From positions 7,051 to 71,050 of the forward strand of contig JAQTQC010000005.1 in NCBI GenBank assembly GCA_028712505.1: a DNA stretch of 64,000 nt, read 5' to 3'. Every line of letters starts with the position of its first letter. Position 1 is the first letter of the stretch. A program made the position numbers and the translations under genes. Below are positions 36,227 to 57,057 of this stretch, piece by piece. The stretch comes from Candidatus Omnitrophota bacterium (GTDB lineage: Bacteria; Omnitrophota; Gorgyraeia; Gygaellales; Profunditerraquicolaceae). Below the pieces are notes generated by a model. It had not been told where the DNA came from. It did not search any database and saw only the letters and a program-made list of their open reading frames with translations.

Positions 36227-36228
36227 AT

Positions 36229-42691: not shown

Positions 42692-42693
42692 GA

Positions 42694-42718: not shown

Positions 42719-42735
42719 CTTAATCTGGGGAAATT

Positions 42736-43146
42736 ATGACTTTGATCCGTTTTGGGGTTTCGATAGATAAAGAGCTTTTATTAAAGTTTGACCGCCTGAT
42801 CAAGGATAAAAAATACACCAATCGTTCTGAGGCCTTCCGTGATTTGATCCGCCAGGAGCTTATCCAGAAACAATGGCAGGGTGACCTTGAGGTTGCCGGT
42901 GCGATTACCCTGGTTTACAATCATCACAAGCGGGAGCTGGTAAATAAACTTATGGATATCCAGCATGACTTTGGAGATCTGATAATCTCATCTCAGCATA
43001 TCCACTTAGATCATAACAATTGTTTAGAGATAATCGCAGTAAAGGGTAATCCTAAAGAGGCGCTCAACCTATCAGATTCCCTGAAATCAGTCAAAGGGGT
43101 AAACCATGCCACCTTGAGCATGTCTAGCGCCGGTAAAGAGATTTAA
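42736..43146 (+). CDS. nikR: nickel-responsive transcriptional regulator NikR (ribbon-helix-helix plus metal-binding domain)
   Basis: MTLIRFGVSIDKELLLKFDRLIKDKKYTNRSEAFRDLIRQEL N-terminus. His-rich metal site (VYNHHKRE ... SSQHIHLDHNNCLEII). Confidence 0.8.
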   Translation: MTLIRFGVSIDKELLLKFDRLIKDKKYTNRSEAFRDLIRQELIQKQWQGDLEVAGAITLVYNHHKRELVNKLMDIQHDFGDLIISSQHIHLDHNNCLEIIAVKGNPKEALNLSDSLKSVKGVNHATLSMSSAGKEI

Positions 43147-43202
43147 AATTTATTTTTTGGTTTACCAGTAACACGAAATATCTATTAATAGCACAGGGAG
43201 GA

Positions 43203-44117
43203 GTGGGAATGTCGCGTTTGATTTTGATCACAATGGTTTTATTGAGCTTTTTTAATGTTTTTTCTTATGCGCAAGATGAAGCGGCGCAGGAGGAGTGGAA
43301 TCCTGTTTCGGCAGGGACACTTACTACTTGGACAGCTCCGCTTTGCGCTAAAGGAGAGATCGTGATCCAGCCATTCTTTTTTTACAACCGGACCAGGGGC
43401 AGTTTTGATGCAGACGGTAAATATCATAGCCTAAATAAAGGGGATAGGCAGTATCAATATCAGGAACAGTTATTTATGCAATATGGTCTTACCGATAGGT
43501 TAGAGATCGATGCCCAGGCGGTTTATCAGCAGAATCGCGCCAGGGTAGATGGTAGTAGTGCCAGTAAGAGCGGTTTTGGGGACAGTTATCTATTCCTGCG
43601 TTATTGTGCTTTGGAGGAAAAAGGATGGATTCCCCATTTAGTGGGTATGTTCCAGCTTAAGATGCCTACCGGCAAATATCAACATTTAAATGCGGATAAA
43701 CTAGGAACTGATTCTATGGGTAGCGGTTCCTGGGATCCCGGGTTTGGTTTTAACCTGACCAAGAAACTTAAGCCTTTTGTATTCCATGCCGATGCTATCT
43801 TTAGTTTTCCGCAAAAGGTAATGGTTGATGGAGTAAAGACAAAATACGCCAGTTATACTAATTATGATGTGGGGGTAGAATATTTCTTGCCTAAAGGTTT
43901 TAACCTGATGCTGGAGGCGAATGGGTATGTACAGGGGGATACCTGGCAGGATGGGGAGAGGGTAGCATCAACAGACTCTAGATATCTGACTATATCTCCA
44001 GGTATCGGCTGGTCGTGTGATAAAGTGCAGTTTTTGTTGGCATATCAGAGAGTGGTGTGCGGAATCAACACAGATGCCAATGATTCTGTGGTTTTAACCG
44101 GAGTATATACTTTTTAA
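43203..44117 (+). CDS. outer-membrane beta-barrel protein (signal peptide; alternating amphipathic strands; C-terminal Phe)
   Basis: MGMSRLILITMVLLSFFNVFSYAQD leader. Ends ...VLTGVYTF, typical of an OMP C-terminal signature. Confidence 0.5.
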   Translation: MGMSRLILITMVLLSFFNVFSYAQDEAAQEEWNPVSAGTLTTWTAPLCAKGEIVIQPFFFYNRTRGSFDADGKYHSLNKGDRQYQYQEQLFMQYGLTDRLEIDAQAVYQQNRARVDGSSASKSGFGDSYLFLRYCALEEKGWIPHLVGMFQLKMPTGKYQHLNADKLGTDSMGSGSWDPGFGFNLTKKLKPFVFHADAIFSFPQKVMVDGVKTKYASYTNYDVGVEYFLPKGFNLMLEANGYVQGDTWQDGERVASTDSRYLTISPGIGWSCDKVQFLLAYQRVVCGINTDANDSVVLTGVYTF

Positions 44118-44127
44118 GGAGGGACAA

Positions 44128-44811
44128 ATGCATATCCCAGACGGGTATCTTGGACCGGGAACTTGTGGGTTGTTTTATTTAATCATGCTCCCGATATGGA
44201 CAGCTGCTTCGCGGATTGTCAGAAAAACTCTTAATGCCAGACAAGTCCCATTGTTGGCTATCGGTGCGGCATTCAGTTTTGTGATTATGATGTTTAATGT
44301 GCCGATACCCGGGGGCACTACCGGCCATGCTGTGGGCGGGGTGCTTGTGGCGATTCTTCTCGGACCATGGGCTGCATGTATTGCTATTACAGTAGCGCTG
44401 GTTATCCAGGCCTTGTTATTCGGAGATGGCGGCATAACTGCTATAGGCGCAAACTGTTTTAACATGGCGGTTGTTCTTCCTTTTTCCGGATATTATATCT
44501 ATAAGGCGATCAGCCGTAGTTCTCCTATAAATTCAAAGAGGAGGGTTATTGCCGCAGGTATTGCCGGTTATATAGCGCTTAATATTGCCGCAGTTATTAC
44601 CGGTTTTATGTTTGGTGTCCAACCTTTATTGTATAAGACTGCAAGCGGGGTGTCGCTCTATTGCCCTTATGGTTTAAATGTTGCTTTACCTGTGATGTTA
44701 GGAGAACATCTTTTGGTTTTTGGGTGGGTAGAAGCGATTGTAACTGCTCTGGTCGTAAGATATCTGCAAAGCCACTCTCCGGAGCTTTTGGTGGAAGGGG
44801 GGAAATCCTGA
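44128..44811 (+). CDS. cbiM: ECF-type Ni/Co transporter substrate-capture subunit CbiM/NikM
   Basis: Canonical N-terminus MHIPDGYL, about 7 TM helices. Confidence 0.8.
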   Translation: MHIPDGYLGPGTCGLFYLIMLPIWTAASRIVRKTLNARQVPLLAIGAAFSFVIMMFNVPIPGGTTGHAVGGVLVAILLGPWAACIAITVALVIQALLFGDGGITAIGANCFNMAVVLPFSGYYIYKAISRSSPINSKRRVIAAGIAGYIALNIAAVITGFMFGVQPLLYKTASGVSLYCPYGLNVALPVMLGEHLLVFGWVEAIVTALVVRYLQSHSPELLVEGGKS

Positions 44812-45140
44812 TGAAGATTATTTCCAAATTTTGGATTTTTATCTGTGGATTAATCGTTTTGTCTCCTTTAGGTCTTTTACTGCCCGATCATTTTAAGGCC
44901 GGTTCTGCCTGGGGTGAGTGGGGGCTGGATGAGATGGAACAACTGGTTGGGTATATCCCGCGAGGTCTGGAAAAGCTCTCGAACCTTTGGAGTGCGCCAT
45001 TTCCCGACTATGCCTTTAAAGGTTGGGAGGATAAGGGGTTATTTTTCTTGAGTTCTGCTTATATCATATCAGCGATATTGGGAGTGCTGGTTATTGTCTT
45101 GGTTGTTATGGGTATCGGGAAGTTTATTGCAAATAAGTAA
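44811..45140 (+). CDS. CbiN/NikL-like small membrane subunit (PDGLE-type; two TM helices)
   Basis: MKIISKFWIFICGLIVLSPLGLLLPDHF ... C-terminal TM. Start overlaps the cbiM stop (TGATG). Confidence 0.55.
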   Translation: MKIISKFWIFICGLIVLSPLGLLLPDHFKAGSAWGEWGLDEMEQLVGYIPRGLEKLSNLWSAPFPDYAFKGWEDKGLFFLSSAYIISAILGVLVIVLVVMGIGKFIANK

Positions 45141-45148
45141 AATATGTT

Positions 45149-46018
45149 ATGAATTTTCGTGAGAAATTGCAGGCCGGTGCGTTTACTGTAACCGCCGAGA
45201 TCGGGCCGCCTAAAGGGATAGAGACCAGCCGTATCCTGGAGGAAGCAGAGCTTATCCGCGGAAGAATCGATGCAATTAGCGTAACGGACTTGCAAAGTTC
45301 CGTGATGCGGCTGGGGGCATTAGCCGTCTGCATTTTGCTTAAACAAAATCATTTCGAATTGATTTATCAAATCACCTGCAGGGACAGGAATCGCCTTGCT
45401 TTGCAATCAGATCTACTTTCTGCTGCTGTGTTTAATATCGAGAATATCCTTATCTTGACCGGTGATCATCCGATGTTAGGCGACCATCCTGAGGCAAAAC
45501 CTGTCTTCGACTTGGATTCCGTACATTTATTGAGGGTCGCTGGAGATTTGCAAAAAGGCAAGGATATGAAAGGTAACCGGTTGGCCGGTGAAGCTCCTTA
45601 TTTCTACCCGGGAGCTGTTGTTAATCCTGGTGCCGAACCAATAGAGCCGGAAATTATCAAAATGGAGAAGAAGATTGCTGCTGGAGCGAAATTCTTTATA
45701 ACCCAGGCTGTTTATGATATTAAAGTTCTCGAAAAGTTCCTTCAGAGGACGAGGTATCTTAAGATTCCGATAATCGCCGGGATTATTATGCTTAAATCCA
45801 GCGTTATGGCTTATCATTTAAAAGCGAAGATTCCCGGTGTTTTTGTTCCTGATTCCCTGGTCCGGGAGATGGAAAATACCAAGGATAGATATAAACAATC
45901 CATTGAAATTACCGGTCGTTTAATTCGGCAATTCAGGCGGGTATGCCACGGTGTCCATATCATGCCTATTGGTTGGAACAGATTTTTGCCGCAAGTCTTG
46001 GAAGAGGGAGGATTATGA
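45149..46018 (+). CDS. metF: methylenetetrahydrofolate reductase-like (MetF family)
   Basis: FTVTAEIGPPKG, ITCRDRNR, LTGDHPMLGDHP motifs. Confidence 0.6.
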   Translation: MNFREKLQAGAFTVTAEIGPPKGIETSRILEEAELIRGRIDAISVTDLQSSVMRLGALAVCILLKQNHFELIYQITCRDRNRLALQSDLLSAAVFNIENILILTGDHPMLGDHPEAKPVFDLDSVHLLRVAGDLQKGKDMKGNRLAGEAPYFYPGAVVNPGAEPIEPEIIKMEKKIAAGAKFFITQAVYDIKVLEKFLQRTRYLKIPIIAGIIMLKSSVMAYHLKAKIPGVFVPDSLVREMENTKDRYKQSIEITGRLIRQFRRVCHGVHIMPIGWNRFLPQVLEEGGL

Positions 46019-46983
46019 TTGTTCTAACTGGCGGGGCGGGTTTTATCGGTAGTTGTTTTCTTGCCAAGCTTAACAGCAAGGGCATAGACGATATTATTAT
46101 TGTAGACAGTCATCTTAATAGTAAAGGAAAATGGCGCAACCTTCTGGGTAAGCGTTTCACTGATTATATCCCAAAAGAAAAATTCCTAAACTTGTTGGAG
46201 AATAACCGTCTTTCTAAGCTGAAGCATATTATCCATCTGGGTGCCTGTAGTTCTACCTTGGTTATTGATCGCGATTACCTGATGAACAATAATTATGAGT
46301 ATTCCAGGAGGGTTTGTTCCTGGGCGTTTAAGCATCATGTTGCCTTTATCTACGCCTCGAGTGCCGCGACATACGGTGACGGTTCTTTCGGTTATGATGA
46401 CAGCGATAAAAATACCTTGCGTTTAAAACCACTTAACCTTTATGGTTTGTCAAAACAGCTTTTTGACCTTTGGCTGCTTAAGAACACTAATGAAAAGACT
46501 CCGGCAGTAGGCTTGAAGTTTTTTAATGTTTTTGGTCCTAATGAATACCATAAAGAAGAGATGATGAGCGTAATTTGTAAGCAGTTCAATGATATCAAAG
46601 AAGGCAGGCCGATGCTCCTTTTTAAATCATATCGGGATGATTATGTGGATGGCGGGCAGAAAAGAGATTTCATTTACGTCAAAGACGCAGTCGAGGTGAT
46701 CTGCTATTTTTATGATAATCCCCGGAAAGCAGGTATTTATAATTTAGGTACGGGCCTGGCGCGCAGTTGGAATGAACTGGCATCGGCAATGTTTTCTGCG
46801 ATGGGGATAGAGCCGAAAATAGAATATATTGAGATGCCTGAGCAGATAAAATCGAAATATCAATACTTTACAGAAGCGAAAATGGATAAATTGAGGGCTG
46901 CTGGATGCCAGCATCAATTCCTGCCTCTTGAAGAGGCTGTGAAGGATTATGCGGCATACCTGTGCAGCAGAGAGTATCTATAA
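46015..46983 (+). CDS. hldD: ADP-L-glycero-D-manno-heptose-6-epimerase
   Basis: MIVLTGGAGFIGS ... DSHLNSKGKW, YxxxK SDR core. ATGA overlap with metF. Confidence 0.75.
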   Translation: MIVLTGGAGFIGSCFLAKLNSKGIDDIIIVDSHLNSKGKWRNLLGKRFTDYIPKEKFLNLLENNRLSKLKHIIHLGACSSTLVIDRDYLMNNNYEYSRRVCSWAFKHHVAFIYASSAATYGDGSFGYDDSDKNTLRLKPLNLYGLSKQLFDLWLLKNTNEKTPAVGLKFFNVFGPNEYHKEEMMSVICKQFNDIKEGRPMLLFKSYRDDYVDGGQKRDFIYVKDAVEVICYFYDNPRKAGIYNLGTGLARSWNELASAMFSAMGIEPKIEYIEMPEQIKSKYQYFTEAKMDKLRAAGCQHQFLPLEEAVKDYAAYLCSREYL

Positions 46984-46995
46984 CAGGGGGATCCA

Positions 46996-47337
46996 ATGCA
47001 TGATTTATGGTTTGCCGGTAAAATAGCCGTATTGCTGAAAGAAAAAATAGATGAAGGCGCTGGATTAAAGCAGATAACCGTCAATATTACCCTGGGTCCT
47101 TTTACCCATGTTACCGAGAAGAGCCTGCTTGCTGCTTTTAATATGCTTGCGGAGAAAGAGGGTTTTAAAAACGTTTCCCTTAATGTAAGAAAGAATAAGG
47201 CTGTTATTAGATGTAATAAATGCATGACATCTACTGAAGTCGTAAAACCGGTTGCAAAATGTCCGAAATGCGGCTGTAGCGATTTTGAAATAGGCAATAC
47301 CGAAGAATTTGTGATTGACTCGATCGAGATGATTTGA
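46996..47337 (+). CDS. hypA: hydrogenase/urease nickel-incorporation metallochaperone HypA
   Basis: MHD N-terminal Ni site. Zinc finger CNKC ... CPKCGC. 113 aa. Confidence 0.75.
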   Translation: MHDLWFAGKIAVLLKEKIDEGAGLKQITVNITLGPFTHVTEKSLLAAFNMLAEKEGFKNVSLNVRKNKAVIRCNKCMTSTEVVKPVAKCPKCGCSDFEIGNTEEFVIDSIEMI

Positions 47338-47422
47338 TTTTTTTTGTTTTCAAAAAGCCCAATTTGAGGTATTATATAAGTCAATATAATACTTATTAAT
47401 CCCGCAAGGAACACAATACTAA

Positions 47423-48532
47423 ATGATAGATTCTCAGGGACTCAAAGATACACCTCTTTTGGCTAGCCATAAAGAGCTTGGTGCTAAACTTGCCCCTTTT
47501 GGCGGATGGCTTATGCCTATTCAATACAGCGGCATTGTAGAAGAGCACAATTGGGTACGTAAAAGCGCCGGGTTATTCGATATCTGCCATATGGGAGAGT
47601 TCATGATCCAGGCGGAGCCCTCCAGGGGTAATCTTGGTAATTTATTGACGATCAACCTTGAGAAGATGCCGGAAGGCGCCTGCCGCTATGGGTTTATGCT
47701 TGATGAACAGGGTGGGATTATTGATGACCTGCTTGTTTATAGGATTGATAACTCTGGGTGGATGATTGTAGTAAATGCCGCTACTTCCGAAGGAGATTTT
47801 GAACATTTTGAAAAACACTTAACCGGCGCAACAACCCTTGAAAATGTTTCGCAGTCGTTGGGTAAACTTGATCTGCAAGGTCCGCTTTCAACAGATGTGT
47901 TGGAGAACCTGCTTGGTCCGGGTATCAGGGGATTACGGTATTATACTTTCAGTTATTTTAATCTTTTAGGCGAAAGAATTATTATCAGCCGTACGGGTTA
48001 CACCGGAGAGCTAGGGTATGAATTGTATATGCCGAATGATAAGATCCCGCAGTTATGGGGAAAGTTGCTTAATGATCAGCGGGTCAAACCGATAGGCCTT
48101 GGTGCGCGTGATACTTTGCGTCTGGAGATGAGTTATAGCCTTTATGGCCAGGATATAGATAAGGATACTACGCCGCTTGAGGCGGGTTTAGGTAATTTTA
48201 TAGATTGGAATAAAGAGTTTATCGGAAAGAACAGTCTTTTGAAACAAAAGCAGAGCGGAGTTTTTCGTAGAATGACCTGTTTTCTAGCGGATTCCCGGCG
48301 TTCGCCCCGACATAATTACCGCATAATCTATAAAGGACAGGATGTCGGAGCAGTAACCAGTGGCTCGTTTTCCCCCAGCCTGGGGATAGGTATTGGTATG
48401 GGCTATGTTAAAGATCAGATTGCTTTAGGCGAGCAAGTTGTTCTTAGCGGGGGCTCAATTTCTATAAATGCGAAAGTTACGAGTAAGCCTTTCTATAAAA
48501 ACGGCAGCGCAAAATCAGGAGAAATAAAATGA
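47423..48532 (+). CDS. gcvT: glycine cleavage system T protein (aminomethyltransferase)
   Basis: GcvT family motifs (TPL...HKELGAKL, MPIQY, GYTGELGYE). Confidence 0.85.
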   Translation: MIDSQGLKDTPLLASHKELGAKLAPFGGWLMPIQYSGIVEEHNWVRKSAGLFDICHMGEFMIQAEPSRGNLGNLLTINLEKMPEGACRYGFMLDEQGGIIDDLLVYRIDNSGWMIVVNAATSEGDFEHFEKHLTGATTLENVSQSLGKLDLQGPLSTDVLENLLGPGIRGLRYYTFSYFNLLGERIIISRTGYTGELGYELYMPNDKIPQLWGKLLNDQRVKPIGLGARDTLRLEMSYSLYGQDIDKDTTPLEAGLGNFIDWNKEFIGKNSLLKQKQSGVFRRMTCFLADSRRSPRHNYRIIYKGQDVGAVTSGSFSPSLGIGIGMGYVKDQIALGEQVVLSGGSISINAKVTSKPFYKNGSAKSGEIK

Positions 48533-48918
48533 ACATACCGGAAAACCTTCTTTATACTAAGGACCATGAGTGGGTGAAAATTGAAGGGGATAGGGCAACT
48601 ATCGGAATCACCGATTTCGCTCAGCATTCCTTAGGGGATATTACTTTTATAGACCTGCCGAAACCAGGGGCGAAGGTGGAGCAATCTAAATGGTGCGCGA
48701 CAGTCGAATCAGTAAAGGCTGCTTCAGATGTTTACGCCCCGCTCTCAGGTGAGGTGCTTGAGGCGAATACGGAATTAACCGATCATCCGGAGCTTATAAA
48801 CAAATCTGCTTATGATACAGGGTGGTTTGCGCTGATTAAAATCGCCGATTTAGGAGAAAAGAGCAGGCTTATGAATTCTGTCCAATATAAAGAATACGTA
48901 CAGGGTCTGTCTAAATGA
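48529..48918 (+). CDS. gcvH: glycine cleavage system H protein
   Basis: YTKDHEWV, lipoyl-Lys context ESVKAASD. Confidence 0.85.
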   Translation: MNIPENLLYTKDHEWVKIEGDRATIGITDFAQHSLGDITFIDLPKPGAKVEQSKWCATVESVKAASDVYAPLSGEVLEANTELTDHPELINKSAYDTGWFALIKIADLGEKSRLMNSVQYKEYVQGLSK

Positions 48919-50252
48919 ATTATATACCGCACACAGAATTAGAGAAAAAAGAGATGCTTAAAAGCATCGGAGTATCAGGAGTCGATGAACTTTTTAAGCA
49001 TATCCCCAAAGAACTGCGGCCAAGGTCATTTAACATTCCCGAAGGCAAGTCTGAATTTGAGGTGATCGAGTATTTAAAACTGCTTAGCCGTAAGAATGCT
49101 ACTAATCTTACAAATTTTGTGGGCGGAGGTTTTTACGATCATTATATCCCGGCAGCGGTTGATGCTTTAGCAGGCCGCTCGGAATTTTATACTGCATATA
49201 CGCCTTATCAACCTGAGTGTTCGCAAGGCTGGTTGCAGGCGATTTACGAATACCAAACAGTAATCTGTGAATTAACCGGATTAGATGTCTCCAATGCCTC
49301 TCTTTATGACGGCGGTACCGCGCTTTATGAGGCGGCGATGATGGCAGTAAGGCTTACCGGAAGAAAGAAGATAATTGTAGATAGCGGGGTAAATTTGATT
49401 TACCGCACTATGCTTTATGCTTATACTTCCAATCTTTCTATCGAATTTATAGAGACTCCGGTAGTGCATGGCCAGGCTTGCCGGGAGGATATCTATAAAC
49501 ACTTGGATGATCAGACTGCGGCGGTGATTGTGCAAAACCCTAATTTCTTCGGAGCGGTGGATGATTTTTCCGATATTGTCCAGCAGGTGCATAAATACGG
49601 GGCGCTGGCAATTGCTTCGGTATATCCGGTTTCTTTAGGGATGTTGAAACCTCCGGCAGAGATGGGCATGGATATTGCAACTGGAGAAGGTCAAAGTTTA
49701 GGCATACCTCTATCTTTTGGCGGACCATATCTGGGTTTTATCGCGGTAAAAAAAGAGCATATGCGTCAGTTGCCTGGCAGGATTGTGGGCGCAACAGTGG
49801 ATAAGGATGATAAAAGAGGTTTTGTTTTGACTCTTCAGGCACGTGAACAGCATATCCGCAGAGAGCGGGCGACTTCTAATATTTGTTCTAATGAGGCGCT
49901 TTGTGCTTTGCGGGCTTTGATCTATACTTCACTTTTAGGTAAAGCGGGTTTTCAGAAATTAGCCAAATTGAATTACCAGAAAGCAGAATTTGCCAAGTCG
50001 GCATTAGATAAGGTGAGTGGGGTAAAAGTCAAGCGTAGTGCGCCGACATTCAATGAATTTACTGTTTGCCTGCCTAAGAATGCCGATGAAGTAGTCTGCC
50101 GGATGATCAATAAAGGGTTTGCCTGCGGTTTCCCGTTGGGTAGATTTTATAAAGGATTAGATAACTATCTTTTGGTTACGGTTACGGAAAAACGCACTAA
50201 AGAAGAAATCCTGCAATTTGCTAACAGCCTGGAGGCAGCACTATGCAGTTAA
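48915..50252 (+). CDS. gcvPA: glycine dehydrogenase (decarboxylating) subunit 1
   Basis: GcvPA family; follows gcvH with a 4-nt overlap. Confidence 0.8.
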   Translation: MNYIPHTELEKKEMLKSIGVSGVDELFKHIPKELRPRSFNIPEGKSEFEVIEYLKLLSRKNATNLTNFVGGGFYDHYIPAAVDALAGRSEFYTAYTPYQPECSQGWLQAIYEYQTVICELTGLDVSNASLYDGGTALYEAAMMAVRLTGRKKIIVDSGVNLIYRTMLYAYTSNLSIEFIETPVVHGQACREDIYKHLDDQTAAVIVQNPNFFGAVDDFSDIVQQVHKYGALAIASVYPVSLGMLKPPAEMGMDIATGEGQSLGIPLSFGGPYLGFIAVKKEHMRQLPGRIVGATVDKDDKRGFVLTLQAREQHIRRERATSNICSNEALCALRALIYTSLLGKAGFQKLAKLNYQKAEFAKSALDKVSGVKVKRSAPTFNEFTVCLPKNADEVVCRMINKGFACGFPLGRFYKGLDNYLLVTVTEKRTKEEILQFANSLEAALCS

Positions 50253-51694
50253 TCTTTGAGAAAAGCCGTCCCGGAAGAGAAGGTTTTAAATTACCTGAGA
50301 TAGATATTCCGATTGCTTCAGATATGCCTGCCAAATATTGTCGCGAGCAACCAGCTTCTCTGCCGGAAGTATCTGAATTAGATGTGGTGCGCCATTTCTC
50401 CAATTTAAGCCGCCTGAACTTTTCAGTGGATACGAATTTTTATCCCCTTGGTTCATGTACCATGAAATATAATCCTAAATTTACGGAAAAGGTTGCTTCT
50501 CTTGAAGGTTTTAGCGATCTACATCCTTTATTGCCTCAGTTGCTGGGAGGCGGGATGCTTGCTCAGGGTTCTTTGGAAGTATTGTATAATATCGAGAAAT
50601 TACTCAGTGAGATTACCGGAATGTCCGCTTTTACTACTCAGCCGCTTGCCGGAGCCCACGGTGAATTAACCGGGGTGATGCTGATTGCTGCATACCACAA
50701 GCATAACGGAGAGCAAAGAAAACATGTAATTATTCCGGATTCCGCGCATGGGACTAATCCGGCTAGTGCCGCGATTGCCGGATATAAAGTGGTAGTTATT
50801 CCTACGGATAAAGATGGTTTTCTGGATCTGCAGGCATACAAAAAGGCCTTAAACCAGGAAACTGCCGCGGTGATGCTTACTTGTCCGGATACGCTTGGGC
50901 TTTTTAATCCCAAAATAAAAGAGATTGCGGATTTAGCGCATGGAGTAGGGGCGCTGATGTATTATGACGGAGCCAATCTTAACGCGATATTAGGAAAATG
51001 CCGGCCGGGGGATATTGGTTTTGATGTCATGCATATTAACCTGCATAAAACTTTTGCTACTCCGCACGGTGGAGGCGGACCGGGAGCAGGGCCGGTGGGA
51101 GTATGCGAGAAACTGGTGGATTTTCTTCCCATATCCCGAGTTATCCGCCGGGCCGATGGGACATTCGCCTTAGATTATCGTAAGCATAAATCTATCGGTT
51201 ATATCGCCCCTTTTTATGGTAATTTTGGAGTAATCTTAAAGGCTTACGCGTATATATTGAGCTTGGGAAAAAGTGGTCTTGTTGAAGCCAGCGAAAACGC
51301 GGTATTAAGCGCAAATTATTGCCTGGAGCGTTTAAAAAATTATTATGCCCCTGCTTACGGCAAGAGCTGTATGCATGAATGTGTGTTATCGGCGGAAAAA
51401 CAGTTGGAGCAGGGAGTGCACGCTTTAGACATCGCCAAATACTTGATTGATAGGGGATTTCACCCGCCGACAATTTATTTCCCGATGATTGTAAAAGAAG
51501 CGATGATGGTTGAGCCGACAGAGACTGAGAGCAAGGAAACACTGGATGCCTTTATTGAGGCGATGATTGAGGCGGCTGTGCTTGCTCAGACTAACCCTGA
51601 GGTTTTACATCAGGCTCCGCTTTCTATGCCGATTAAACGGCTTGATGAAACAAAAGCCGCCCGAGAACCGAATCTGCGTTGGCAGTCAAAGTAA
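50243..51694 (+). CDS. gcvPB: glycine dehydrogenase (decarboxylating) subunit 2
   Basis: PLP-dependent fold, HINLHKTF region. Confidence 0.8.
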   Translation: MQLIFEKSRPGREGFKLPEIDIPIASDMPAKYCREQPASLPEVSELDVVRHFSNLSRLNFSVDTNFYPLGSCTMKYNPKFTEKVASLEGFSDLHPLLPQLLGGGMLAQGSLEVLYNIEKLLSEITGMSAFTTQPLAGAHGELTGVMLIAAYHKHNGEQRKHVIIPDSAHGTNPASAAIAGYKVVVIPTDKDGFLDLQAYKKALNQETAAVMLTCPDTLGLFNPKIKEIADLAHGVGALMYYDGANLNAILGKCRPGDIGFDVMHINLHKTFATPHGGGGPGAGPVGVCEKLVDFLPISRVIRRADGTFALDYRKHKSIGYIAPFYGNFGVILKAYAYILSLGKSGLVEASENAVLSANYCLERLKNYYAPAYGKSCMHECVLSAEKQLEQGVHALDIAKYLIDRGFHPPTIYFPMIVKEAMMVEPTETESKETLDAFIEAMIEAAVLAQTNPEVLHQAPLSMPIKRLDETKAAREPNLRWQSK

Positions 51695-51700
51695 GAAATC

Positions 51701-52417
51701 ATGAAGACATTCAGGCTTATCCGTTCCCAAGCGTCTGACGCCGAATACAATATGGCGTTAGATAAAAGGATATTCTGCCGTTATCTTGAAGAAGGTGTTC
51801 CTGTCTTACGGATATACGGCTGGCAGTTTCCTTCTATGACTTATGGTATTTCGCAAAAGCCCGAAGAACATATTGATTTAAATAAATGCCAGCGCGACGG
51901 AGTCCAGGTCTCCCAGAGGATTACCGGCGGCGGGGTGCTTTTTCATAATCATGAGATTACCTATAGCCTGGTTTGTGCAAAAGAGGATATCGGAGAAGAA
52001 AGAAAAGTTTTTGTTTCCTATCGTAATATCTGCAGTTTTTTGATGCATTTTTATGAATCGCTGGGGTTAAATGTGTCTTTTGCGCTTGAGGCGGTTGGTT
52101 TTAAGAATAGAAGCCAGCCGCATGAATTATGCAGTGCTTCTCATGAGAAATATGATATTGTTATCGGCTCAAGAAAAATCGGCGGGAATGCCCAGAAACG
52201 TGTTCGTCAGGCGATATTTCAGCATGGCTCTATTCCTTTGAGTATTGATTGGGATTTTTTGCGCCGTTATGTTTACTCTTTACCGGATAACATCTCTTTG
52301 TTAGCTACGGCATTAGGCGAGGAATTGGCAGTGCTTCCGGAAAAACAAATTCTTGAGCAGAAGCTTATCGATGCTTTTGCATATACGTACGGAGTAGGTT
52401 TTATAGAGGAAAAATAA
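51701..52417 (+). CDS. lipoate-protein ligase / octanoyltransferase family (BPL_LplA_LipB domain)
   Basis: SRKIGGNAQKR motif. Lies between gcvP and lipA. Confidence 0.6.
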   Translation: MKTFRLIRSQASDAEYNMALDKRIFCRYLEEGVPVLRIYGWQFPSMTYGISQKPEEHIDLNKCQRDGVQVSQRITGGGVLFHNHEITYSLVCAKEDIGEERKVFVSYRNICSFLMHFYESLGLNVSFALEAVGFKNRSQPHELCSASHEKYDIVIGSRKIGGNAQKRVRQAIFQHGSIPLSIDWDFLRRYVYSLPDNISLLATALGEELAVLPEKQILEQKLIDAFAYTYGVGFIEEK

Positions 52418-52509
52418 TTGTTATCCTGGTTCCTCGAAGAAAGTTTCGAGGTTCGGGATTTTGCTGGATTAAATGATTTTTAGATATCAGTTTAGGCGGG
52501 TGCTCAAAT

Positions 52510-53355
52510 ATGATCAAGCCGGCGTGGCTTAATAAAAAGATTTCACTCAGGGATTGCAGCCAGGTCAAGGGTATGCTTAAGGATTTGCAGCTGCATACTG
52601 TTTGTGAAGAAGCGCTTTGCCCGAATATGGGCGAATGTTTTAACCAGCGCCAGGCGACATTTATTATCCTTGGGGATATTTGTACTCGCGGTTGTCGTTT
52701 TTGCGGAGTAACCAAAGGAAAGCCGTCTGCCCTCGATACTGATGAGCCAAGGCGTATTGCCGAGGCTGTGAAAAAGTTAGGATTGATGCATGTGGTGATT
52801 ACCAGCGTTACCCGGGATGATCTGCCTGATGGAGGTGCTTTGACATTTGCGGAAACAATTTCTTCTTTGCGTGCCATAGGCAACAAGATCTCAATTGAAA
52901 CACTGATTCCGGATTTTAACGCTAACCAAGAGTCTTTGCGGATTATTGCGGATGCGCGGCCAGATATCATCGCCCATAACATAGAAACAGTACCAAGCCT
53001 GTATAAAGAAGTAAGGCCGAGTGGGGCTTCTTACCAGCGCTCATTAGGGGTATTGCGTAGTTTAAAAGATCTTGCTCCTGAGATTGCCCTTAAATCCGGA
53101 TTAATGCTGGGATTGGGTGAGAAGAGGGATGAAGTTCTCGCGGTATTTAATGACCTTATCCAGGCAGGTTGTATGTTTTTGAGCATCGGCCAATATCTCG
53201 CGCCAAGCCTGAATCATTATCCGGTAAGAGAGTATGTAAGCCCGTTTCAATTCCTCCGCTATAAAGAAGAGGGGGAAAGGCTGGGTTTTGCCCATATTGA
53301 GAGCGGCCCGTACGTTAGAAGTTCATATAAGGCTAAGGATTATTTAACTCTATAG
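52510..53355 (+). CDS. lipA: lipoyl synthase
   Basis: CPNMGEC ... CTRGCRFCGV cysteine clusters. Confidence 0.85.
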   Translation: MIKPAWLNKKISLRDCSQVKGMLKDLQLHTVCEEALCPNMGECFNQRQATFIILGDICTRGCRFCGVTKGKPSALDTDEPRRIAEAVKKLGLMHVVITSVTRDDLPDGGALTFAETISSLRAIGNKISIETLIPDFNANQESLRIIADARPDIIAHNIETVPSLYKEVRPSGASYQRSLGVLRSLKDLAPEIALKSGLMLGLGEKRDEVLAVFNDLIQAGCMFLSIGQYLAPSLNHYPVREYVSPFQFLRYKEEGERLGFAHIESGPYVRSSYKAKDYLTL

Positions 53356-53378
53356 ATAAAACATAGACGGATACATCG

Positions 53379-54311
53379 ATGCGGATATTTATTACCGGAG
53401 CAACCGGGTTTATCGGCAGGTCTCTTGTTGATGAGCTTATTTCTCGCGGACATAGCGAAATAACCGCGTTGACGCGCAAGACATCAGATACCGAATTTTT
53501 GAGAAACAGGGATATCAAGATAGTTTATGGAGATGTGACGGATAAAACTTGTTTAAAGCTTGTCGAGGGAGATTACGATGTTTTGTTCCATTGCGCGGGG
53601 TTAGTTACAAATCGCGATAAAAGGATGTTGCATGAAGTTAACGTAGCCGGGACGGAGAATATATGCCGTTGGGCTGCTGAGCGCAATATGAAGAAAGTGA
53701 TCTATGTCAGTTCCGTATCGGTAAATTCAGGCAACCCGGTCGATATGCTTACCGAGGATCATCCCTACTCTGCAACAAATCCTTATGGTGTTTCAAAGCT
53801 GGAAGCTGAGAAAATGGCTGTAAAGTTTCGCGATGCCGGACTCCCCATGGTTATTGTCCGTCCCTGTATTGTCTATGGCGAGGGAGAGCCGCATTGGATG
53901 CCATTTTTATCAAGGCTTATGCGCCTGAGGCTTTGTGTCATTCCTGCCTGTGGGGATAGATTGTTGCATATGGTTTCTGTCCGCAATCTGGCTGTTTGTC
54001 TTGTGCGTTGTTTCGAGGATAACCGTGCCCTGGGAGGGGTATTTAATATCGCTGATAACAATGTCCTTACTATTCGGGAGGTTCTTAAGGTTATCTCTAA
54101 AAGTTTACATGTTCCCATGCCTGTAACATTTCCCCGTTTTCTTAAAAATGTCGCCTCCCGTCTTCCTGTTATAGGTAAGCGTATCAGGTTCTTTGATAAA
54201 GACCGTGTTTATAGTATAAGAAAGTTAAAAGAAACAATTGATTTTTCGCCTCCACATGATGTAATAGTAGAGCTTATGTTTGCCGCGTTGTCTTTACGTG
54301 CGCATAAATGA
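53379..54311 (+). CDS. NAD-dependent epimerase/dehydratase family protein
   Basis: ITGATGFIGRSLV Rossmann motif, YGVSK. Confidence 0.7.
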   Translation: MRIFITGATGFIGRSLVDELISRGHSEITALTRKTSDTEFLRNRDIKIVYGDVTDKTCLKLVEGDYDVLFHCAGLVTNRDKRMLHEVNVAGTENICRWAAERNMKKVIYVSSVSVNSGNPVDMLTEDHPYSATNPYGVSKLEAEKMAVKFRDAGLPMVIVRPCIVYGEGEPHWMPFLSRLMRLRLCVIPACGDRLLHMVSVRNLAVCLVRCFEDNRALGGVFNIADNNVLTIREVLKVISKSLHVPMPVTFPRFLKNVASRLPVIGKRIRFFDKDRVYSIRKLKETIDFSPPHDVIVELMFAALSLRAHK

Positions 54312-54327
54312 TATTCTGATAGTTTGA

Positions 54328-55101
54328 TTGTCCAGTGTTGAAATAGGAAAGGAGAGTATTTTGCCTAAAGCAACTTTGAATGTTAAGTTATTGGATGTAA
54401 CCGAGAACGCCCTGGCGTTGATATATTCCGCCTGCCGGCAGTGTTATGCCGAAGAGTTTGCCGGAGATATCTACGAAAAGATAAAAGATGATGATGTCAA
54501 ACAAGCCGCATTCATCAAAAAAATAATTGCTTCAGGTCATGAAAGTCCTTTAGAGCATGTAAAATTCACTTTTGCCATTGAAGGCGTTTCCCGGGCGTTG
54601 ACTCATCAGCTTGTGCGGCATCGCCTGGCTTCATACTCCCAGCAGAGCCAGCGTTATGTCAAGGAGAGCGATTTTGATTATATCATTCCGCCGTCTATTG
54701 AAGCAAACCCTTTGGCAAAAAAGGAGTTTGAAAGAATAATGGCTTTGATCCAGGAAAGTTATACCAGGATATCTGAGGTTTTGTCAGAGAAAGGGCTAAG
54801 TGGAGAGACAGCCAACCAGGATGCGCGTTTTGTCCTGCCTCAGGCTGCAGAGACGAAGATCATCGTTACCATGAATTGTCGTGAACTGTTGCATTTTTTC
54901 AAGCATCGTTGTTGTTTTCGCGCGCAATGGGAAATCCGCAAGCTGGCAGAGAAGATGCTGTTGGATTGCAAAAAATGTCTTCCCTTGCTATTTTCTAAGG
55001 CAGGAGCCAAATGCATCTCTCTTGGATTTTGTCCTGAAGGAGCGCGTTTTTCTTGCGGCAGGTTTCCGGTGAAAGAAGAAAATGCAAAAGAAGGTAAATG
55101 A
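54328..55101 (+). CDS. thyX: flavin-dependent thymidylate synthase
   Basis: ThyX signature RHRLASYSQQSQRY. Confidence 0.8.
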   Translation: MSSVEIGKESILPKATLNVKLLDVTENALALIYSACRQCYAEEFAGDIYEKIKDDDVKQAAFIKKIIASGHESPLEHVKFTFAIEGVSRALTHQLVRHRLASYSQQSQRYVKESDFDYIIPPSIEANPLAKKEFERIMALIQESYTRISEVLSEKGLSGETANQDARFVLPQAAETKIIVTMNCRELLHFFKHRCCFRAQWEIRKLAEKMLLDCKKCLPLLFSKAGAKCISLGFCPEGARFSCGRFPVKEENAKEGK

Positions 55102-55904
55102 AAAATAGCAACCTGTTATCGTTTCTCAAAGATTCCTTATTTTCCGAGGAATATGCTTTAAAGGCTGGCTTTATGCAATCCTTGGATCCGAGGATAAAGG
55201 CATTAAGCTGTGCATTTTTTATCATAGCAACGTTATTCACAAAGAGCATCCCGGTTATTTTATCCTTATATCTGCTGTGTTTGTTTCTTGCCTGTGTTTC
55301 TAAGATTAGCTTAGGTTTCTTCTTAAAGCGAACCTGGATATTCATTCCTTTGTTTTCATTGTTCATCGGGCTTCCGGCGTTATTCAGTAATTTTACCCCC
55401 GGGGAAGAATTGTTCAGTTTTAAAGTCGCGGGGTTGATGTTGGTAGTCACTTCTTCTGGAGTCATTACCTTTTTATTATTTGTTTTACGGGTTAGCACTA
55501 CGGTGTCTTTTGCCGTACTCTTAAGCGTTACTACCCGGAATTTTGAACTGCTAAAAGTTTTAAGGATTTTTAGCATTCCGCAGGCATTTGTAATGGTTTT
55601 GGGAATATGCTACCGCTATCTTTATCTTTTTATCGAGATGATCGAGAATACCGGTCTTGCCATCAAAAGCAGGGTGGGGAGAATTGGGCATTATAAAAAA
55701 GGCCAGCAGATAGTTGGATGGAGTATCGCTTTCCTTTGGATGCGTTCATATCAGTTAAGCGGGGATGTATATAAAGCCATGCTCTCTCGCGGATACAGCG
55801 GAGAGTCTTATGTCCTGGATAATTTTAAGACGGATTTTAAGGATTGGCTGTGGTTGGTGCTGACAGGAGTAATCCTAATATGGGTAATCCGGTTTTCTCA
55901 TTAA
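55098..55904 (+). CDS. cbiQ: ECF transporter transmembrane (T) component CbiQ family
   Basis: 5-6 TM helices and CbiQ-like topology, directly upstream of the ECF ATPase. Confidence 0.6.
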   Translation: MKNSNLLSFLKDSLFSEEYALKAGFMQSLDPRIKALSCAFFIIATLFTKSIPVILSLYLLCLFLACVSKISLGFFLKRTWIFIPLFSLFIGLPALFSNFTPGEELFSFKVAGLMLVVTSSGVITFLLFVLRVSTTVSFAVLLSVTTRNFELLKVLRIFSIPQAFVMVLGICYRYLYLFIEMIENTGLAIKSRVGRIGHYKKGQQIVGWSIAFLWMRSYQLSGDVYKAMLSRGYSGESYVLDNFKTDFKDWLWLVLTGVILIWVIRFSH

Positions 55905-56698
55905 AGAATATTTGTTTTTCCTACCTGGGGAGATTCCCAGCTTTAGTTGCTGTGGATATCGACATTAACTCAGGCGAGAAGATTTCTGTTATCGGTGCTA
56001 ACGGTTCAGGCAAATCAACGTTACTGCATTTGCTTGATGGACTGATTTTTGCGGACAGCGGAAAGCTGGATTTCTCCGGAAGGGCTCTGGATGAATTGAG
56101 TTTTAAGGATGATAAATTCAGCCGGGATTTCCGGCGCAAGGTGGGGTTTGTTTTTCAGAACCCGGATGTGCAGTTGTTTTGTCCGACTGTTAAAGAAGAT
56201 ATCGTTTTTGGTCCGCTGCATCTGGGGTTTGGCAGGGAAGAAATCGGAAAACGGCTGGAGAAAGTAATTTGCGTTTTAGATATAAGCGGATTGCTGGATA
56301 GATCTCCCCATCAGTTAAGTGTAGGCGAGAAGCGTAAAGTGGCTATTGCCTCAACACTGATCATCGAACCGGATATTATTATCCTGGATGAGCCTACTGC
56401 CGGGCTTGACCCGCAGACCTCCCGAAAGATAATCGATCTGTTGATTCAGGAAAATTTAAACGGTAAAACAGTGATTACTTCTACGCATGATTTGCATATA
56501 GTGGAGGAGATATCGGATACGGTTTATGTGTTTGGGCAGGAAAAAAGGATAATTAAATCCGGCAGCCCGGATTCTATATTAGCTGATGTTCCTCTGCTTA
56601 CCGAGAATAACCTTGTGCATGTCCATAGCCACAGACATAAGGATAAGGTGCATGTCCACCCTCATGTGCATTTGGAGCATCACGCGCAGGATATTTAG
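55880..56698 (+). CDS. cbiO: ECF/ABC transporter ATPase (CbiO family) with His-rich C-terminal tail
   Basis: Walker A GANGSGKST, ABC signature LSVGEKRK, Walker B IIILDEPT. Tail HVHSHRHKDKVHVHPHVHLEHH. Start taken at MGNPVFSL. Confidence 0.75.
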   Translation: MGNPVFSLKNICFSYLGRFPALVAVDIDINSGEKISVIGANGSGKSTLLHLLDGLIFADSGKLDFSGRALDELSFKDDKFSRDFRRKVGFVFQNPDVQLFCPTVKEDIVFGPLHLGFGREEIGKRLEKVICVLDISGLLDRSPHQLSVGEKRKVAIASTLIIEPDIIILDEPTAGLDPQTSRKIIDLLIQENLNGKTVITSTHDLHIVEEISDTVYVFGQEKRIIKSGSPDSILADVPLLTENNLVHVHSHRHKDKVHVHPHVHLEHHAQDI

Positions 56699-56730
56699 TC
56701 GGCTGATTCTTAAAAAGAAAGGCTTGGATT

Positions 56731-57057
56731 ATGCGTAAAGAGAAATTTCTTTCTATTAAGTTAAGGGGAGGGCAAAGGTTTGTCCGTTTGCTCGGCGATT
56801 CAACCAAGCTGAAGGGTTTGTGCAGTGGGCTGGTGGCTTTGCAGCCGGGAGACTCAATTGGAGAGCATAAAACTGAGAACAAAGAAGAAGTGCTCGTTAT
56901 CATTAAAGGCAATGCTACTGTATATTATAGTAAGGATAAAAGTATAAAAGCCGGTCCAAATACTTTTATATATATCCCTCCGGAAACCGTGCATAATGTA
57001 AAGAATTCTGGCAGTAAGATTCTGCGCTATGTCTACATAACCTCCAAGATTAATTAA
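56731..57057 (+). CDS. cupin-domain protein (108 aa)
   Basis: Cupin_2-like motifs GDSIGEHKTE and PPETVHNVKN. Confidence 0.5.
   Translation: MRKEKFLSIKLRGGQRFVRLLGDSTKLKGLCSGLVALQPGDSIGEHKTENKEEVLVIIKGNATVYYSKDKSIKAGPNTFIYIPPETVHNVKNSGSKILRYVYITSKIN

Follow-up and report, generated by a model that had tools for sequence, protein, structure and literature searches.

The genes at positions 42736-57057 of the window, the whole 64 kb stretch of an Omnitrophota MAG that was analyzed, likely encode a high-affinity pathway for nickel uptake under NikR control, which would span both membranes and whose operon has been broken by an insertion. All genes of the module are present and lie on the + strand. 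Positions 42736-45140 hold nikR, a gene for an outer membrane protein (OMP), nikM and a nikN of the PDGLE type, and positions 55098-57057 hold nikQ, nikO with its His-rich tail and a cupin gene. Functions were assigned from sequence, genomic context and one structural model of medium confidence. The comparison set for the OMP comprised 74 loci (designated by L numbers) from ~70 related genomes, 72 of which have enough flanking sequence for their neighbors to be judged.

Genes of the nickel module

The nikR gene (42736-43146, +) encodes a nickel-responsive ribbon-helix-helix repressor of 136 residues with RHH and NikR_C domains, which matches the model NF003381 at 179 bits (cutoff 105). Its sequence contains the nickel-site pattern His...HxHx5C (QHDF...HIHLDHNNC), whose residues we take to correspond to His76, His87, His89 and Cys95 of E. 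coli NikR. The OMP gene (ORF 43203-44117, +; PF13557, 49 bits, cutoff 22) likely starts at the ATG at 43209, which is preceded by a ribosome-binding site (GGGAGGAG) and at which its homologs also begin. The nikM gene (44128-44811, +; PF01891) encodes the S component of an ECF nickel transporter, and nikN (44808-45140, +; PF13190), whose start overlaps the final four bases of nikM (44808-44811), encodes its two-helix membrane partner of 110 residues, which matches the last third of NF005598, a model of the fused Nik(MN) type. Assignment of this "N" gene to CbiN (PF02553) was rejected, as its product is a PDGLE-domain NikN. Further downstream, nikQ/cbiQ (55098-55904, +) encodes a CbiQ-type T component that matches TIGR02454 at 140 bits (cutoff 111.8), and nikO/cbiO (likely start 55880, end 56698, +) a single ABC ATPase with Walker A (GANGSGKST), signature (LSVGE) and Walker B (ILDEP) motifs. 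The last gene (56731-57057, +; PF07883) encodes a cupin_2 monocupin of 108 residues with conserved His46, Glu52/53 and His88; it also follows nikO in L001, L006, L008, L009 and L033, and a PDB search returned only weak matches to generic cupins. It is possibly a metal-binding accessory protein.

The best NCBIfam matches of the transporter proteins carry the names CbiM, CbiQ and cobalt ATPase, and a planar site of the NikM type can accommodate Co2+ as well (PMC3945884), as would be expected if the system imported cobalt, or both metals, instead of nickel; we nevertheless consider this very unlikely. NikM matches nickel-bound TtNikM2 (4M58) at 248 bits (E 1.4e-72) versus 57 bits for the cobalt CbiM 5X3X, and conserves Met1, His2, His67 and Gln94, the ligand roles of which come from the solved homolog (PMC3945884). 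Also speaking against cobalt are the nickel-site pattern of the regulator and its NikR operator, the PDGLE NikN partner, the embedding of hypA in the cluster, and the separate cobalamin-riboswitch CbiMQO operons of the phylum, which are only 28-39% identical to the genes of the window.

The system thus resembles the group I ECF transporter NikMNQO (Rodionov 2004/2006; 4M58) in its planar Met1/His2/His67 site, small NikN, NikR control, CbiQ-type T component and single NikO ATPase, and differs from it in the 11 unrelated genes between N and Q, in the outer membrane barrel gene between nikR and nikM, and in the conserved His-rich tail of NikO. No description of the N-Q split, of the nikR-OMP-nikM order or of the NikO His tail was found in the literature searched, the coverage of which did not extend to the 2006 survey.

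In the window all ~40 genes point the same way and have short gaps between them, so that adjacency alone weighs less in this genome. The arrangement of the module is not a chance juxtaposition, since it recurs across many species-level genomes.

Insertion between the S and T/A components

The separation of the S components (NikM/NikN) from the T/A components (NikQ/NikO), which an earlier note on this DNA had put at about 10 kb, measures 9,957 bp between the stop of nikN and the start of nikQ. The gap holds 11 genes, all on the + strand: by profile match, a metF-like methylene-THF reductase gene (45149-46018) and hldD for ADP-heptose 6-epimerase (likely start 46012), these inserted genes ending at 46983; hypA (46996-47337); and, from their translations, gcvT, gcvH, gcvPA, gcvPB, lipB, lipA, an SDR epimerase gene and thyX (47423-55101), the Pfam labels of this last block being those of its counterparts in L001 and L080. 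In at least 15 related genomes nikR-omp-nikMNQO is contiguous (L014, L019, L026, L033, L037, L039, L041, L045, L049, L054, L058, L061, and others), and in ~10 the gcv/lip insertion occupies the same nikN-nikQ junction (gcvTHP-lipBA in L001, L006, L008, L009, L012, L013, L023, L027 and L057), with or without hldD, hypA, metF and thyX. Among the relatives metF was found in L011 only, and hldD in L002, L011, L012, L027, L056 and L081. The ancestral operon is the contiguous nikR-omp-nikM-nikN-nikQ-nikO, and the gap is a lineage-specific, recent insertion into it of the gcv/lip block together with hldD, hypA, metF and thyX; we regard it as highly probable that the window holds a Ni-ECF system split by insertion.

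NikQ of the window is 50-63% identical to the NikQ encoded directly behind NikMN in contiguous operons, 72-74% identical to that of its closest split relatives and 25-29% identical to cobalt-type CbiQ. NikO is 59-75% identical to the NikO of NikMN-linked operons elsewhere, and Q/O are 25-40% identical to cobalt-type CbiQO. At ~50-75% identity and with the same His tail, the window Q/O are orthologs of dedicated NikQO.

Their position suggests another explanation, namely that cbiQ/cbiO (55098-56698) form a shared, group II-like module serving several S components, with NikMN either one client or independent of the module. Q/O are unlinked from nikMN, lack a NikR box and are translationally coupled to thyX (the start of nikQ and the stop of thyX share 4 bases), and nikMN occurs without nearby Q/O in L002, L052, L064 and L081. 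Work of the Eitinger laboratory reportedly showed that NikMN/CbiMN units have basal transport activity alone, which would also fit such a module. As in group II ECF systems, in which scattered S components share EcfAA'T, the S and T/A genes are unlinked and only the S unit appears regulated. Unlike these systems, however, the window has one ATPase gene and not EcfA plus EcfA', a T component that passes the CbiQ equivalog model TIGR02454, and a separation that arose by recent insertion and not by shared-module design; at least 15 genomes have orthologs of its Q/O immediately after nikMN, cobalt-type operons come with Q/O of their own, and the His-rich tail was found in 19 of 19 complete NikMN-linked ATPases and in none of the five other CbiO examined. 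We rejected a general group II module for Q/O, which the earlier note had named as a finding that would count against its reading of a split nickel-handling module, and judge sharing between several S components to be decidedly improbable.

NikR operator and the nikR-omp intergenic element

A sigma-70-like promoter is predicted upstream of nikR (42674-42702, +; TTGACA, 17 nt, TACTAT, with a TG extension; 10 of 12 matches), and the left half of a putative NikR operator, aTGTTAC-N13-GTAACAC (42693-42719, +), overlaps its -10 hexamer. The operator is the sole match to GTTAC-N12-15-GTAAC in the 64 kb, where 0.07 would be expected, and has one mismatch to the full NikR consensus GTGTTAC-N13/14-GTAACAC (Rodionov 2004, PMC545781). 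It is conserved in most nikR-bearing related loci; in ~35 loci an equivalent box precedes the nikR match by ~45-55 nt. Of the 46 boxes that match at 12 or more of the 14 positions in ~1 Mb of related loci, 43 are directly upstream of nikR or omp. Speaking against the reading, L001/L010 has kept omp-nikMN...nikQO, but nikR and the box are missing from the locus.

The element between nikR and omp (43147-43208, +) comprises a T-run, GTAACAC (43168-43174), TATTAAT (43183-43189), which resembles a -10 hexamer, ATAGCAC (43188-43194) and the ribosome-binding site (43196-43203), and no terminator-like fold was found in it. An alignment of 25 species shows AGTA[AG]CACGAA to be invariant or almost so, and boxes that match at 12 or more of the 14 positions occur in this element in L006, L021, L039, L046, L057 and L072. 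The element is probably a second NikR-controlled promoter, for omp-nikMN. The window shares with the delta-proteobacterial NikR regulon (PMC545781) the operator consensus, its spacing and position before the nik operon, and the linkage of nikR to nik; it differs in phylum, in the membership of the OMP in the regulon, and in the second element before omp, GTAACAC-N13-ATAGCAC, which is in direct orientation.

The operator scan of the window found no NikR box before nikQO, and a scan for promoters and terminators within the module gave no convincing internal ones. With no box before nikQO, nickel would regulate only the outer membrane channel and the S unit, and Q/O would ride with the housekeeping genes.

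The outer membrane protein

The OMP (43209-44117, +; 304 residues) has a signal peptide, a C-terminal Phe and a predicted 12-stranded beta-barrel of the PF13557/COG4313 family, and is proposed here to be a divalent-cation channel. Its family co-occurs with nikR, which is directly upstream in 47 of the 72 testable loci, together with NikR boxes. A metal-linked gene is directly downstream in 62 of the 72; the downstream gene is NikM in 34 loci, a distant CbiM in 11, FeoB in seven and a small membrane protein in ten, and once each a ZnuC-like ABC ATPase (ahead of an ABC-3 permease) and a His-rich permease. In the CbiMQO-linked L025, L048, L051 and L053 a cobalamin riboswitch lies just ahead of the OMP, and in L063 it lies ~560 nt upstream, while a Fur-like box or Fur-family gene (the latter judged by its C-terminal sequence) precedes the OMP in the FeoB-linked L032 and in L044. 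The order in L059 is znuA-omp-znuC-znuB. These associations lead us to favor a role for the OMP as a metal-cation uptake channel. The proposal of the earlier note that it is a dedicated nickel channel holds as far as linkage to metal importers is concerned but not as to nickel exclusivity, given the copies beside CbiMQO, FeoB/Fur and znuA...znuCB.

It is feasible, although in our view unlikely, that the OMP is instead a general small porin of reduced cells that genome streamlining has set beside transporter genes, letting many small solutes through and having no particular role as a metal channel. The conservation analysis found no residue that discriminates Ni-, Co- and Fe-linked copies, which are 50-90% identical, and seven of the 72 loci have no recognized metal-linked gene directly downstream. 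In L002 a Porin_5 gene heads the pst phosphate operon, and a porin-first uptake operon may thus be a general Omnitrophota habit. Conversely, the identified neighbors of the OMP are all metal-cation systems (Ni, Co, Fe, Zn/Mn) except for the DUF134 and SBF-family pair that the L044 copy precedes; the copies are coupled to sensors specific for metals (NikR boxes, cobalamin riboswitches, Fur); and in some genomes at least two copies occur, every one within a metal operon of its own (L031 and L043, both from one MAG; tandem in L064, L067 and L068). A role of the OMP in metal efflux or protection, similar to that of the copper protein PcoB, is extremely improbable: it shares operons with importers (ECF, FeoB, ZnuABC), and its control by NikR as co-repressor, by cobalamin riboswitch or by Fur would switch it off when metal or cofactor is plentiful, the opposite of efflux logic.

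By structural comparison the predicted model, which is of medium confidence (pLDDT 71.5, with the conserved N-terminal segment below 50), shares its fold with the COG4313 channel Pput2725 and with FapF, at 13-14% identity to the solved members. Known members (Pput2725, TcpY, FapF) have been linked to the import of hydrophobic aromatics or to the secretion of amyloid, whereas the OMP is tied to metal importers and sensors. Over all copies, 12 acidic residues and a single His show at least 90% conservation, and the subfamily of the window has many invariant Asp/Glu and two invariant Cys. It may be that the barrel is a general pore for small solutes or cations without specificity for nickel. In Pput2725, the only solved COG4313 channel, the N-terminus occludes the lumen, and its authors considered passage of hydrophilic solutes unlikely (PMC4493636), so an ion-channel role for the OMP needs a different pore.

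Two types of outer membrane system offer parallels. As in the NikR-regulated TonB-dependent receptors FrpB4/FecA3 of H. pylori, among others (PMC11247825), nickel would enter through the outer membrane under NikR control. The OMP of the window, with 304 residues, is a 12-stranded barrel. Nickel receptors of the H. pylori type are energized, 22-stranded and TonB-dependent. The Fur-regulated OprB-/OprP-like porins beside feoAB in Geobacter, also a prediction only, are similar in that a metal-regulated porin heads an inner membrane importer operon, but involve other porin families and another metal (PMC545781). The OprB family reappears in L081, where an OprB-family porin, preceded by the nikR-omp intergenic element, stands between nikR and nikM in place of the OMP.

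The NikO tail, HypA and the nickel client

The C-terminal 26 residues of NikO (HVHSHRHKDKVHVHPHVHLEHHAQDI; 56618-56695) include 10 His. The tail motif is shared by all 19 complete NikMN-linked NikO and is missing from the four riboswitch-linked CbiO and from L050; we tentatively suggest that the tail is a nickel sensor or donor. HypA, a nickel metallochaperone, has an MHD N-terminus and a CxxC...CxxC zinc site and matches PF01155 at 70 bits (cutoff 28.9), with a score under the TIGR00100 cutoff; an identical protein carries the name HypA at NCBI. The gene lies within nik clusters in four lineages (relatives L056, L057 and L081).

As the earlier note had observed, hypA stands without hypB or a visible client: no hydrogenase, urease, CODH, Ni-SOD, glyoxalase or HypB was found among the ~40 window ORFs, nor any nickel enzyme or HypB in the 9 kb of the source contig beyond the right window end. 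L037 encodes a NiFe large subunit and HycI, L081 encodes HycI, and group 4g NiFe hydrogenases as well as CODH/ACS are common among Omnitrophota (PMC10066038). From these relatives, the nickel client is probably a NiFe hydrogenase.

Proposed working of the pathway

When nickel is scarce, NikR would leave the operator that overlaps the nikR -10 hexamer, and probably also the second element before omp, allowing transcription of nikR-omp-nikM-nikN. The OMP, judging from its fold, synteny and regulation, would pass Ni2+ over the outer membrane without TonB. NikM would then capture the ion via the Met1 amino group, His2 and His67, as in the solved homolog, aided by NikN, and NikQ with a NikO dimer, encoded 10 kb downstream, would power import, a role indicated by orthology. 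More speculatively, the His-rich tail of NikO could bind cytoplasmic nickel, to shut off the pump or to hand the metal over to chaperones. HypA would deliver nickel to a NiFe hydrogenase encoded elsewhere. That members of the OMP family stand beside nickel, cobalt, iron or zinc importers suggests that they are probably an unrecognized kind of metal entry channel.

Gene content of the nickel region

All of the approximately 40 large ORFs of the 64-kb window are on the forward strand. The nickel region starts with nikR (42736-43146) and continues with omp, an ORF from 43203 that encodes an outer-membrane protein (OMP) of the PF13557 family and whose probable start, the ATG at 43209, is preceded by the ribosome-binding site GGGAGGAG. 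Next come nikM (44128-44811) and nikN (44808-45140), the genes for the S unit of an ECF transporter. A metF-like gene, hldD and hypA (46996-47337) lie between nikN and gcvT, and gcvT, gcvH, gcvPA, gcvPB, lipB, lipA, an SDR epimerase gene and thyX between hypA and the gene for the T component, nikQ (cbiQ-type, 55098-55904), with a 4-base overlap between its start and the thyX stop. The ATPase gene nikO (cbiO-type, 55880-56698) and a cupin gene (56731-57057) complete the region. The earlier note had described these genes as a module whose S and T/A genes lie some 10 kb apart; all are present, and the nikN stop and nikQ start are separated by 9,957 bp and 11 genes. The note named the S components CbiM/N, but the "N" protein is of the NikN/PDGLE type (PF13190) and not CbiN.

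Elsewhere in the window, an ORF of 7,364 aa (75-22169, +) takes up the first third, giant ORFs being a described trait of the Omnitrophota (PMC10066038). F-type ATP synthase genes (b/delta fusion, alpha, gamma, and beta) adjoin type-II-secretion/type-IV-pilus genes (E, F, J, K, PilMN, and PilO) at 24445-36762 (+), as in the "symbiotic" ATPase/T4aP loci that have been described in the phylum (PMC10066038). A further E-F pair, accompanied by a PilZ gene, begins at 61375 and runs past the window, with a secretin at its end (seen in the related-genome locus L080).

NikR and its predicted operators

NikR comprises an N-terminal ribbon-helix-helix domain (PF01402) and a C-terminal nickel-binding domain (PF08753) and passes the equivalog model NF003381 with 179 bits against a cutoff of 105. 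Its translation reads QHDF...HIHLDHNNC, the His...HxHx5C nickel-site pattern, whose ligands we take to be the counterparts of His76, His87, His89, and Cys95 of E. coli NikR. A promoter-like sequence, TTGACA-17 nt-TACTAT, is situated at 42674-42702 (+), and its -10 hexamer is overlapped by the inverted repeat aTGTTAC-N13-GTAACAC (42693-42719), which is unique in the window, where 0.07 such sites would be expected by chance. The repeat fits the consensus GTGTTAC-N13/14-GTAACAC (PMC545781), which was derived for delta-proteobacteria; the host here is a member of the Omnitrophota. Sites with at least 12 of 14 matches numbered 46 in approximately 1 Mb of related loci, and 43 of them are just 5' of nikR or omp. 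The repeat is a predicted NikR operator ahead of the nickel uptake genes that is kept in relatives. Immediately 5' of nikR is an MFS_1 gene (41462-42691), the 3' end of which contains the -35 of the nikR promoter, and the same gene is found in this position in the window's clade (L004-L008, L011-L014, L019, L027, L033, and L066).

The 62-bp spacer between nikR and omp is conserved in an alignment of 25 species and consists of a T-run, AGTA[AG]CACGAA, a -10-like TATTAAT and a second [AG]TA[AG]CAC thirteen bases further. We infer from this arrangement that the spacer is a second NikR-controlled promoter. The T-run past the nikR stop also raised the possibility of a terminator, which we rejected as the fold was no better than that of shuffled sequences (z -0.22). 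A pattern scan for terminators gave no more than the chance expectation, and Rfam at gathering thresholds identified zero RNA elements in the window.

Transporter components and metal specificity

NikM scored 248 bits against 4M58, the structure of the nickel-bound S component TtNikM2, compared with 57 bits against the cobalt CbiM (5X3X), and by alignment to 4M58 it keeps Met1 and His2 of the extracytoplasmic N-terminus, His67, and Gln94, residues whose roles have been described (PMC3945884). NikN matches the fused Nik(MN) model NF005598 over the C-terminal part of that model, NikQ is above the TIGR02454 (CbiQ) cutoff, and NikO is a single A component with intact ABC motifs. A cobalt reading was rejected in favor of nickel on the basis of the NikR equivalog match and site pattern, the far greater similarity of NikM to TtNikM2 than to CbiM, and the ligand residues being in place. 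NikMNQO with NikR is predicted to be an ordinary nickel uptake system. Its ATPase has an unusual His-rich C-terminal tail, NNLVH[IV]HSHRHKDKxHxHPHxHL[DE]HH, which all complete NikMN-linked NikO proteins share and which the cobalt-type CbiO proteins examined lack. From its conservation, the tail may serve the ECF ATPase for regulation or for hand-off; the literature searched gave no description of a His-rich tail on such an ATPase.

An insertion split the operon

For comparison we took 76 loci with OMP relatives from one-genome-per-species contigs (given handles such as L001) and annotated them with the window's proteins; locus labels such as Planctomycetales or Deltaproteobacteria are the depositors' own MAG labels. 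The order nikR-omp-nikM-nikN-nikQ-nikO is uninterrupted in at least 15 loci (e.g., L019, L026, L033, L037, L039, L041, L045, L049, and L058), so that the group I trait of having all components in one operon, absent in the window, is present in these relatives. In approximately 10 loci (L001, L006, L008, L009, L012, L013, L023, L027, and L057), including the window's closest relatives with enough flank, gcvT-H-PA-PB-lipB-lipA is situated between nikN and nikQ, with hldD, hypA, metF, and thyX variably present.

The earlier note had recognized that its reading would fall if CbiQ/O proved to be a general group II module, an outcome for which we found no support. There is one ATPase gene rather than EcfA plus EcfA', the T component is CbiQ-type, and identity to the NikMN-linked counterparts is 50-74% for the window's NikQ and 59-75% for its NikO, as opposed to 25-40% to the cobalt-type CbiQO of the same phylum. 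These identities, with the shared His tail and the contiguous operons of relatives, identify the split as a clade-wide insertion into a dedicated group I operon.

No canonical NikR box (with up to three mismatches) was found ahead of nikQ, thyX, gcvT, or hypA in the window, nor ahead of the same genes in the split relatives. Because the insertion leaves nikQ without a box, only omp and the S unit would remain under NikR and the motor would be expressed with housekeeping genes. The split operon would then be a clear natural case of a regulated S unit and outer-membrane channel with the motor left to housekeeping expression. In a sister genome (L001/L010, on a 922-kb contig), the order MFS-omp-nikMN...nikQO-cupin is kept at 8033-10000 with neither nikR nor a NikR box at the locus, and an IS200/IS605-type Y1 transposase gene lies between its DEAD helicase and MFS genes.

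The outer-membrane barrel and its family

OMP (304 aa) matched PF13557 with 49.1 bits against a gathering score of 22. It has 672 homologs, of which the nearest named ones come from Candidatus Omnitrophota MAGs, and a precomputed PF13557 label is found on homologs; a search with a divergent paralog to reach past the phylum returned 27 matches, each of them without a name or labeled "bacterium." The predicted model is a 12-stranded beta-barrel, like the monomeric 12-stranded barrels of COG4313/PF13557 channels. In such channels the N-terminal segment folds into the barrel lumen; here residues 19-43 of that segment are modeled with a pLDDT below 50, and yet conservation in the protein is highest there. 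Conservation of 90% or more across all OMP copies is seen for twelve Asp/Glu, one His, and two Cys. At this length and strand number the protein differs from TonB-dependent nickel receptors, which have 22 strands, a plug domain, a TonB box, and approximately 700 aa or more. The known COG4313 proteins are linked to hydrophobic substrates, and the solved channel Pput2725 has been considered ill-suited to hydrophilic solutes (PMC4493636); in contrast to the tie of such channels to hydrophobic/aromatic uptake, none of the 74 non-redundant OMP loci was seen to have aromatic-degradation genes alongside. We found no paper linking COG4313/PF13557 to metals, in a search that did not extend to the nickel/cobalt survey of Rodionov (2006, J Bacteriol).

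Most of the identified OMP neighbors in these 74 loci are metal importers. Among the 72 loci with enough flank, nikR is directly 5' of omp in 47. Directly 3' of omp, NikM is encoded in 34 loci, a distant CbiM in 11, small membrane proteins in 10, and FeoB in 7; one locus has a gene for a His-rich permease in this position, and another has a ZnuC-type ATPase gene with an ABC-3 permease gene behind it. The CbiM-linked copies that lack nikR head CbiM-CbiQ-CbiO operons with cobalamin riboswitches upstream (RF00174, 57-93 bits), which abut omp in L025 (9818-9990), L048 (9783-9974), L051 (9813-9986), and L053 (882-1076) and lie approximately 560 nt 5' of it in L063 (9178-9396); the CbiO proteins of these operons have no His-rich tail. 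The FeoB-linked copy in L022 is preceded by a Fur-like box, and the FeoB-linked omp of L032 and the omp of L044 each have on the 5' side a gene whose C-terminal sequence marks it as a probable Fur-family member. In L059 the gene order is znuA-omp-znuC-znuB.

Locus L081 (5996-9013) keeps the conserved spacer and the order nikR-X-nikM-nikN-hldD-hypA-gcv/lip, where X is an OprB-family porin (PF04966, 455 aa); nikQO was not found after its lipA. The exchange of OMP for OprB is a predicted non-orthologous replacement, and the presence of a porin in the same slot is an argument for an outer-membrane pore being needed there.

The adjacency of the OMP family to nikR in other genomes, a check that the earlier note had proposed, is borne out by the 47 loci. 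Its suggestion of a dedicated nickel channel agrees with the metal-importer context, but the barrel is also found in cobalt, iron, and zinc operons and has no nickel-specific residue. No position separated the nickel, cobalt, and iron copies, with one weak column only (W/Y177), and a neighbor-joining tree, calculated without support values, grouped the contexts only loosely. As no position divides the copies by metal, a generic divalent-cation pore, recruited and regulated per metal, is more likely than a nickel-specific one.

In 10 loci (L016, L017, L021, L028, L029, L031, L035, L043, L065, and L073) nikR-omp has no NikM next to it and instead precedes one or two genes for membrane proteins of 92-103 aa that share the motif LxLMxWGG...[DE]H; Pfam gave a single marginal hit below threshold and none that was significant for these proteins, which may represent an undescribed small nickel permease. 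In L064, L067, and L068 (~8500-10900), two tandem OMP paralogs, with 39-45% and 52-53% identity to the OMP of the window, flank either nikR or a NikR box and are followed by a divergent CbiM and a PDGLE protein, with no Q/O nearby. In L002 (589-9464), a pstSCAB-phoU operon begins with a Porin_5 gene, and nikR has a fur-family gene and znuABC directly upstream. This arrangement suggests that these genomes habitually place genes for outer-membrane pores in operons and cluster their metal loci.

HypA, the cupin, and the nickel client

HypA matched PF01155 with 70 bits against 28.9 and is under the stricter TIGR00100 cutoff (56 against 88). It begins MHD (the His2 nickel site), has a CxxC...CxxC zinc site (CNKC and CPKC), and shows 100% identity to a protein encoded in a "Candidatus Omnitrophica" MAG at NCBI. 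As the earlier note had observed, hypA is not accompanied in the window by hypB or a hydrogenase; we found neither these nor urease or CODH there or in the 9 kb past its right end on the source contig. The gene is inside the nik clusters of the window, L056, L057, and L081. A motif scan for a client enzyme over the loci compared identified one NiFe hydrogenase large subunit, in L037, which with HycI is encoded 9 kb from the nik operon; in L081 a HycI protease gene is 4 kb upstream of the operon. Group 4g NiFe hydrogenases and CODH/ACS are common in Omnitrophota (PMC10066038). Considered together, hypA in nik clusters, the hydrogenase genes of L037 and L081, and the enzymes usual in the phylum make NiFe hydrogenase the most likely candidate client of the nickel pathway.

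Adjacent hldD and hypA occur inside the nik clusters of three separate lineages (window 46012-47337, L056 11503-12813, and L081 9021-10348). The cupin gene is 3' of nikO in the window and in five relatives, six genomes in all, and its product keeps the His/Glu/His triad and had generic cupin matches only in the PDB. Locus L035 has a 519-aa ORF (11338-12897) with both ends similar to an IscU/NifU scaffold protein and a long middle insertion ending in ...HNC, which by eye looks like an intein.

Implications

Textbook ideas are unchanged by this analysis, in which all functional statements are predictions. What appears unusual is a putative sensor-controlled barrel of the COG4313 type encoded in the operon and common to the cobalt, iron, and zinc importers of the phylum, together with the conserved NikO tail and the clade-wide operon-splitting insertion. 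The passage of nickel and cobalt across the outer membrane is poorly known, with general porins and a few TonB-dependent receptors as the accepted routes (PMC11247825). A different solution is indicated here: a compact (300-residue) barrel encoded inside the importer operon under the metal's sensor, for four metals in one phylum.

We tentatively propose, as a reading that falls a little short of probable, that the Omnitrophota have an unrecognized class of small, TonB-independent divalent-metal outer-membrane channels of the COG4313 fold that head nickel, cobalt, iron, and zinc importer operons, and that the NikO tail is a nickel sensor. If this is correct, one type of barrel would head operons of NikR (nickel), the cobalamin riboswitch (cobalt), Fur/FeoB (ferrous iron), and ZnuABC (zinc), and each metal's own sensor would gate the entry of that metal at the outer membrane. 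The His tail would be a built-in cytoplasmic nickel sensor, serving in pump shut-off or HypA loading, and the COG4313 family, so far tied to hydrophobic substrates only, would gain a second function.
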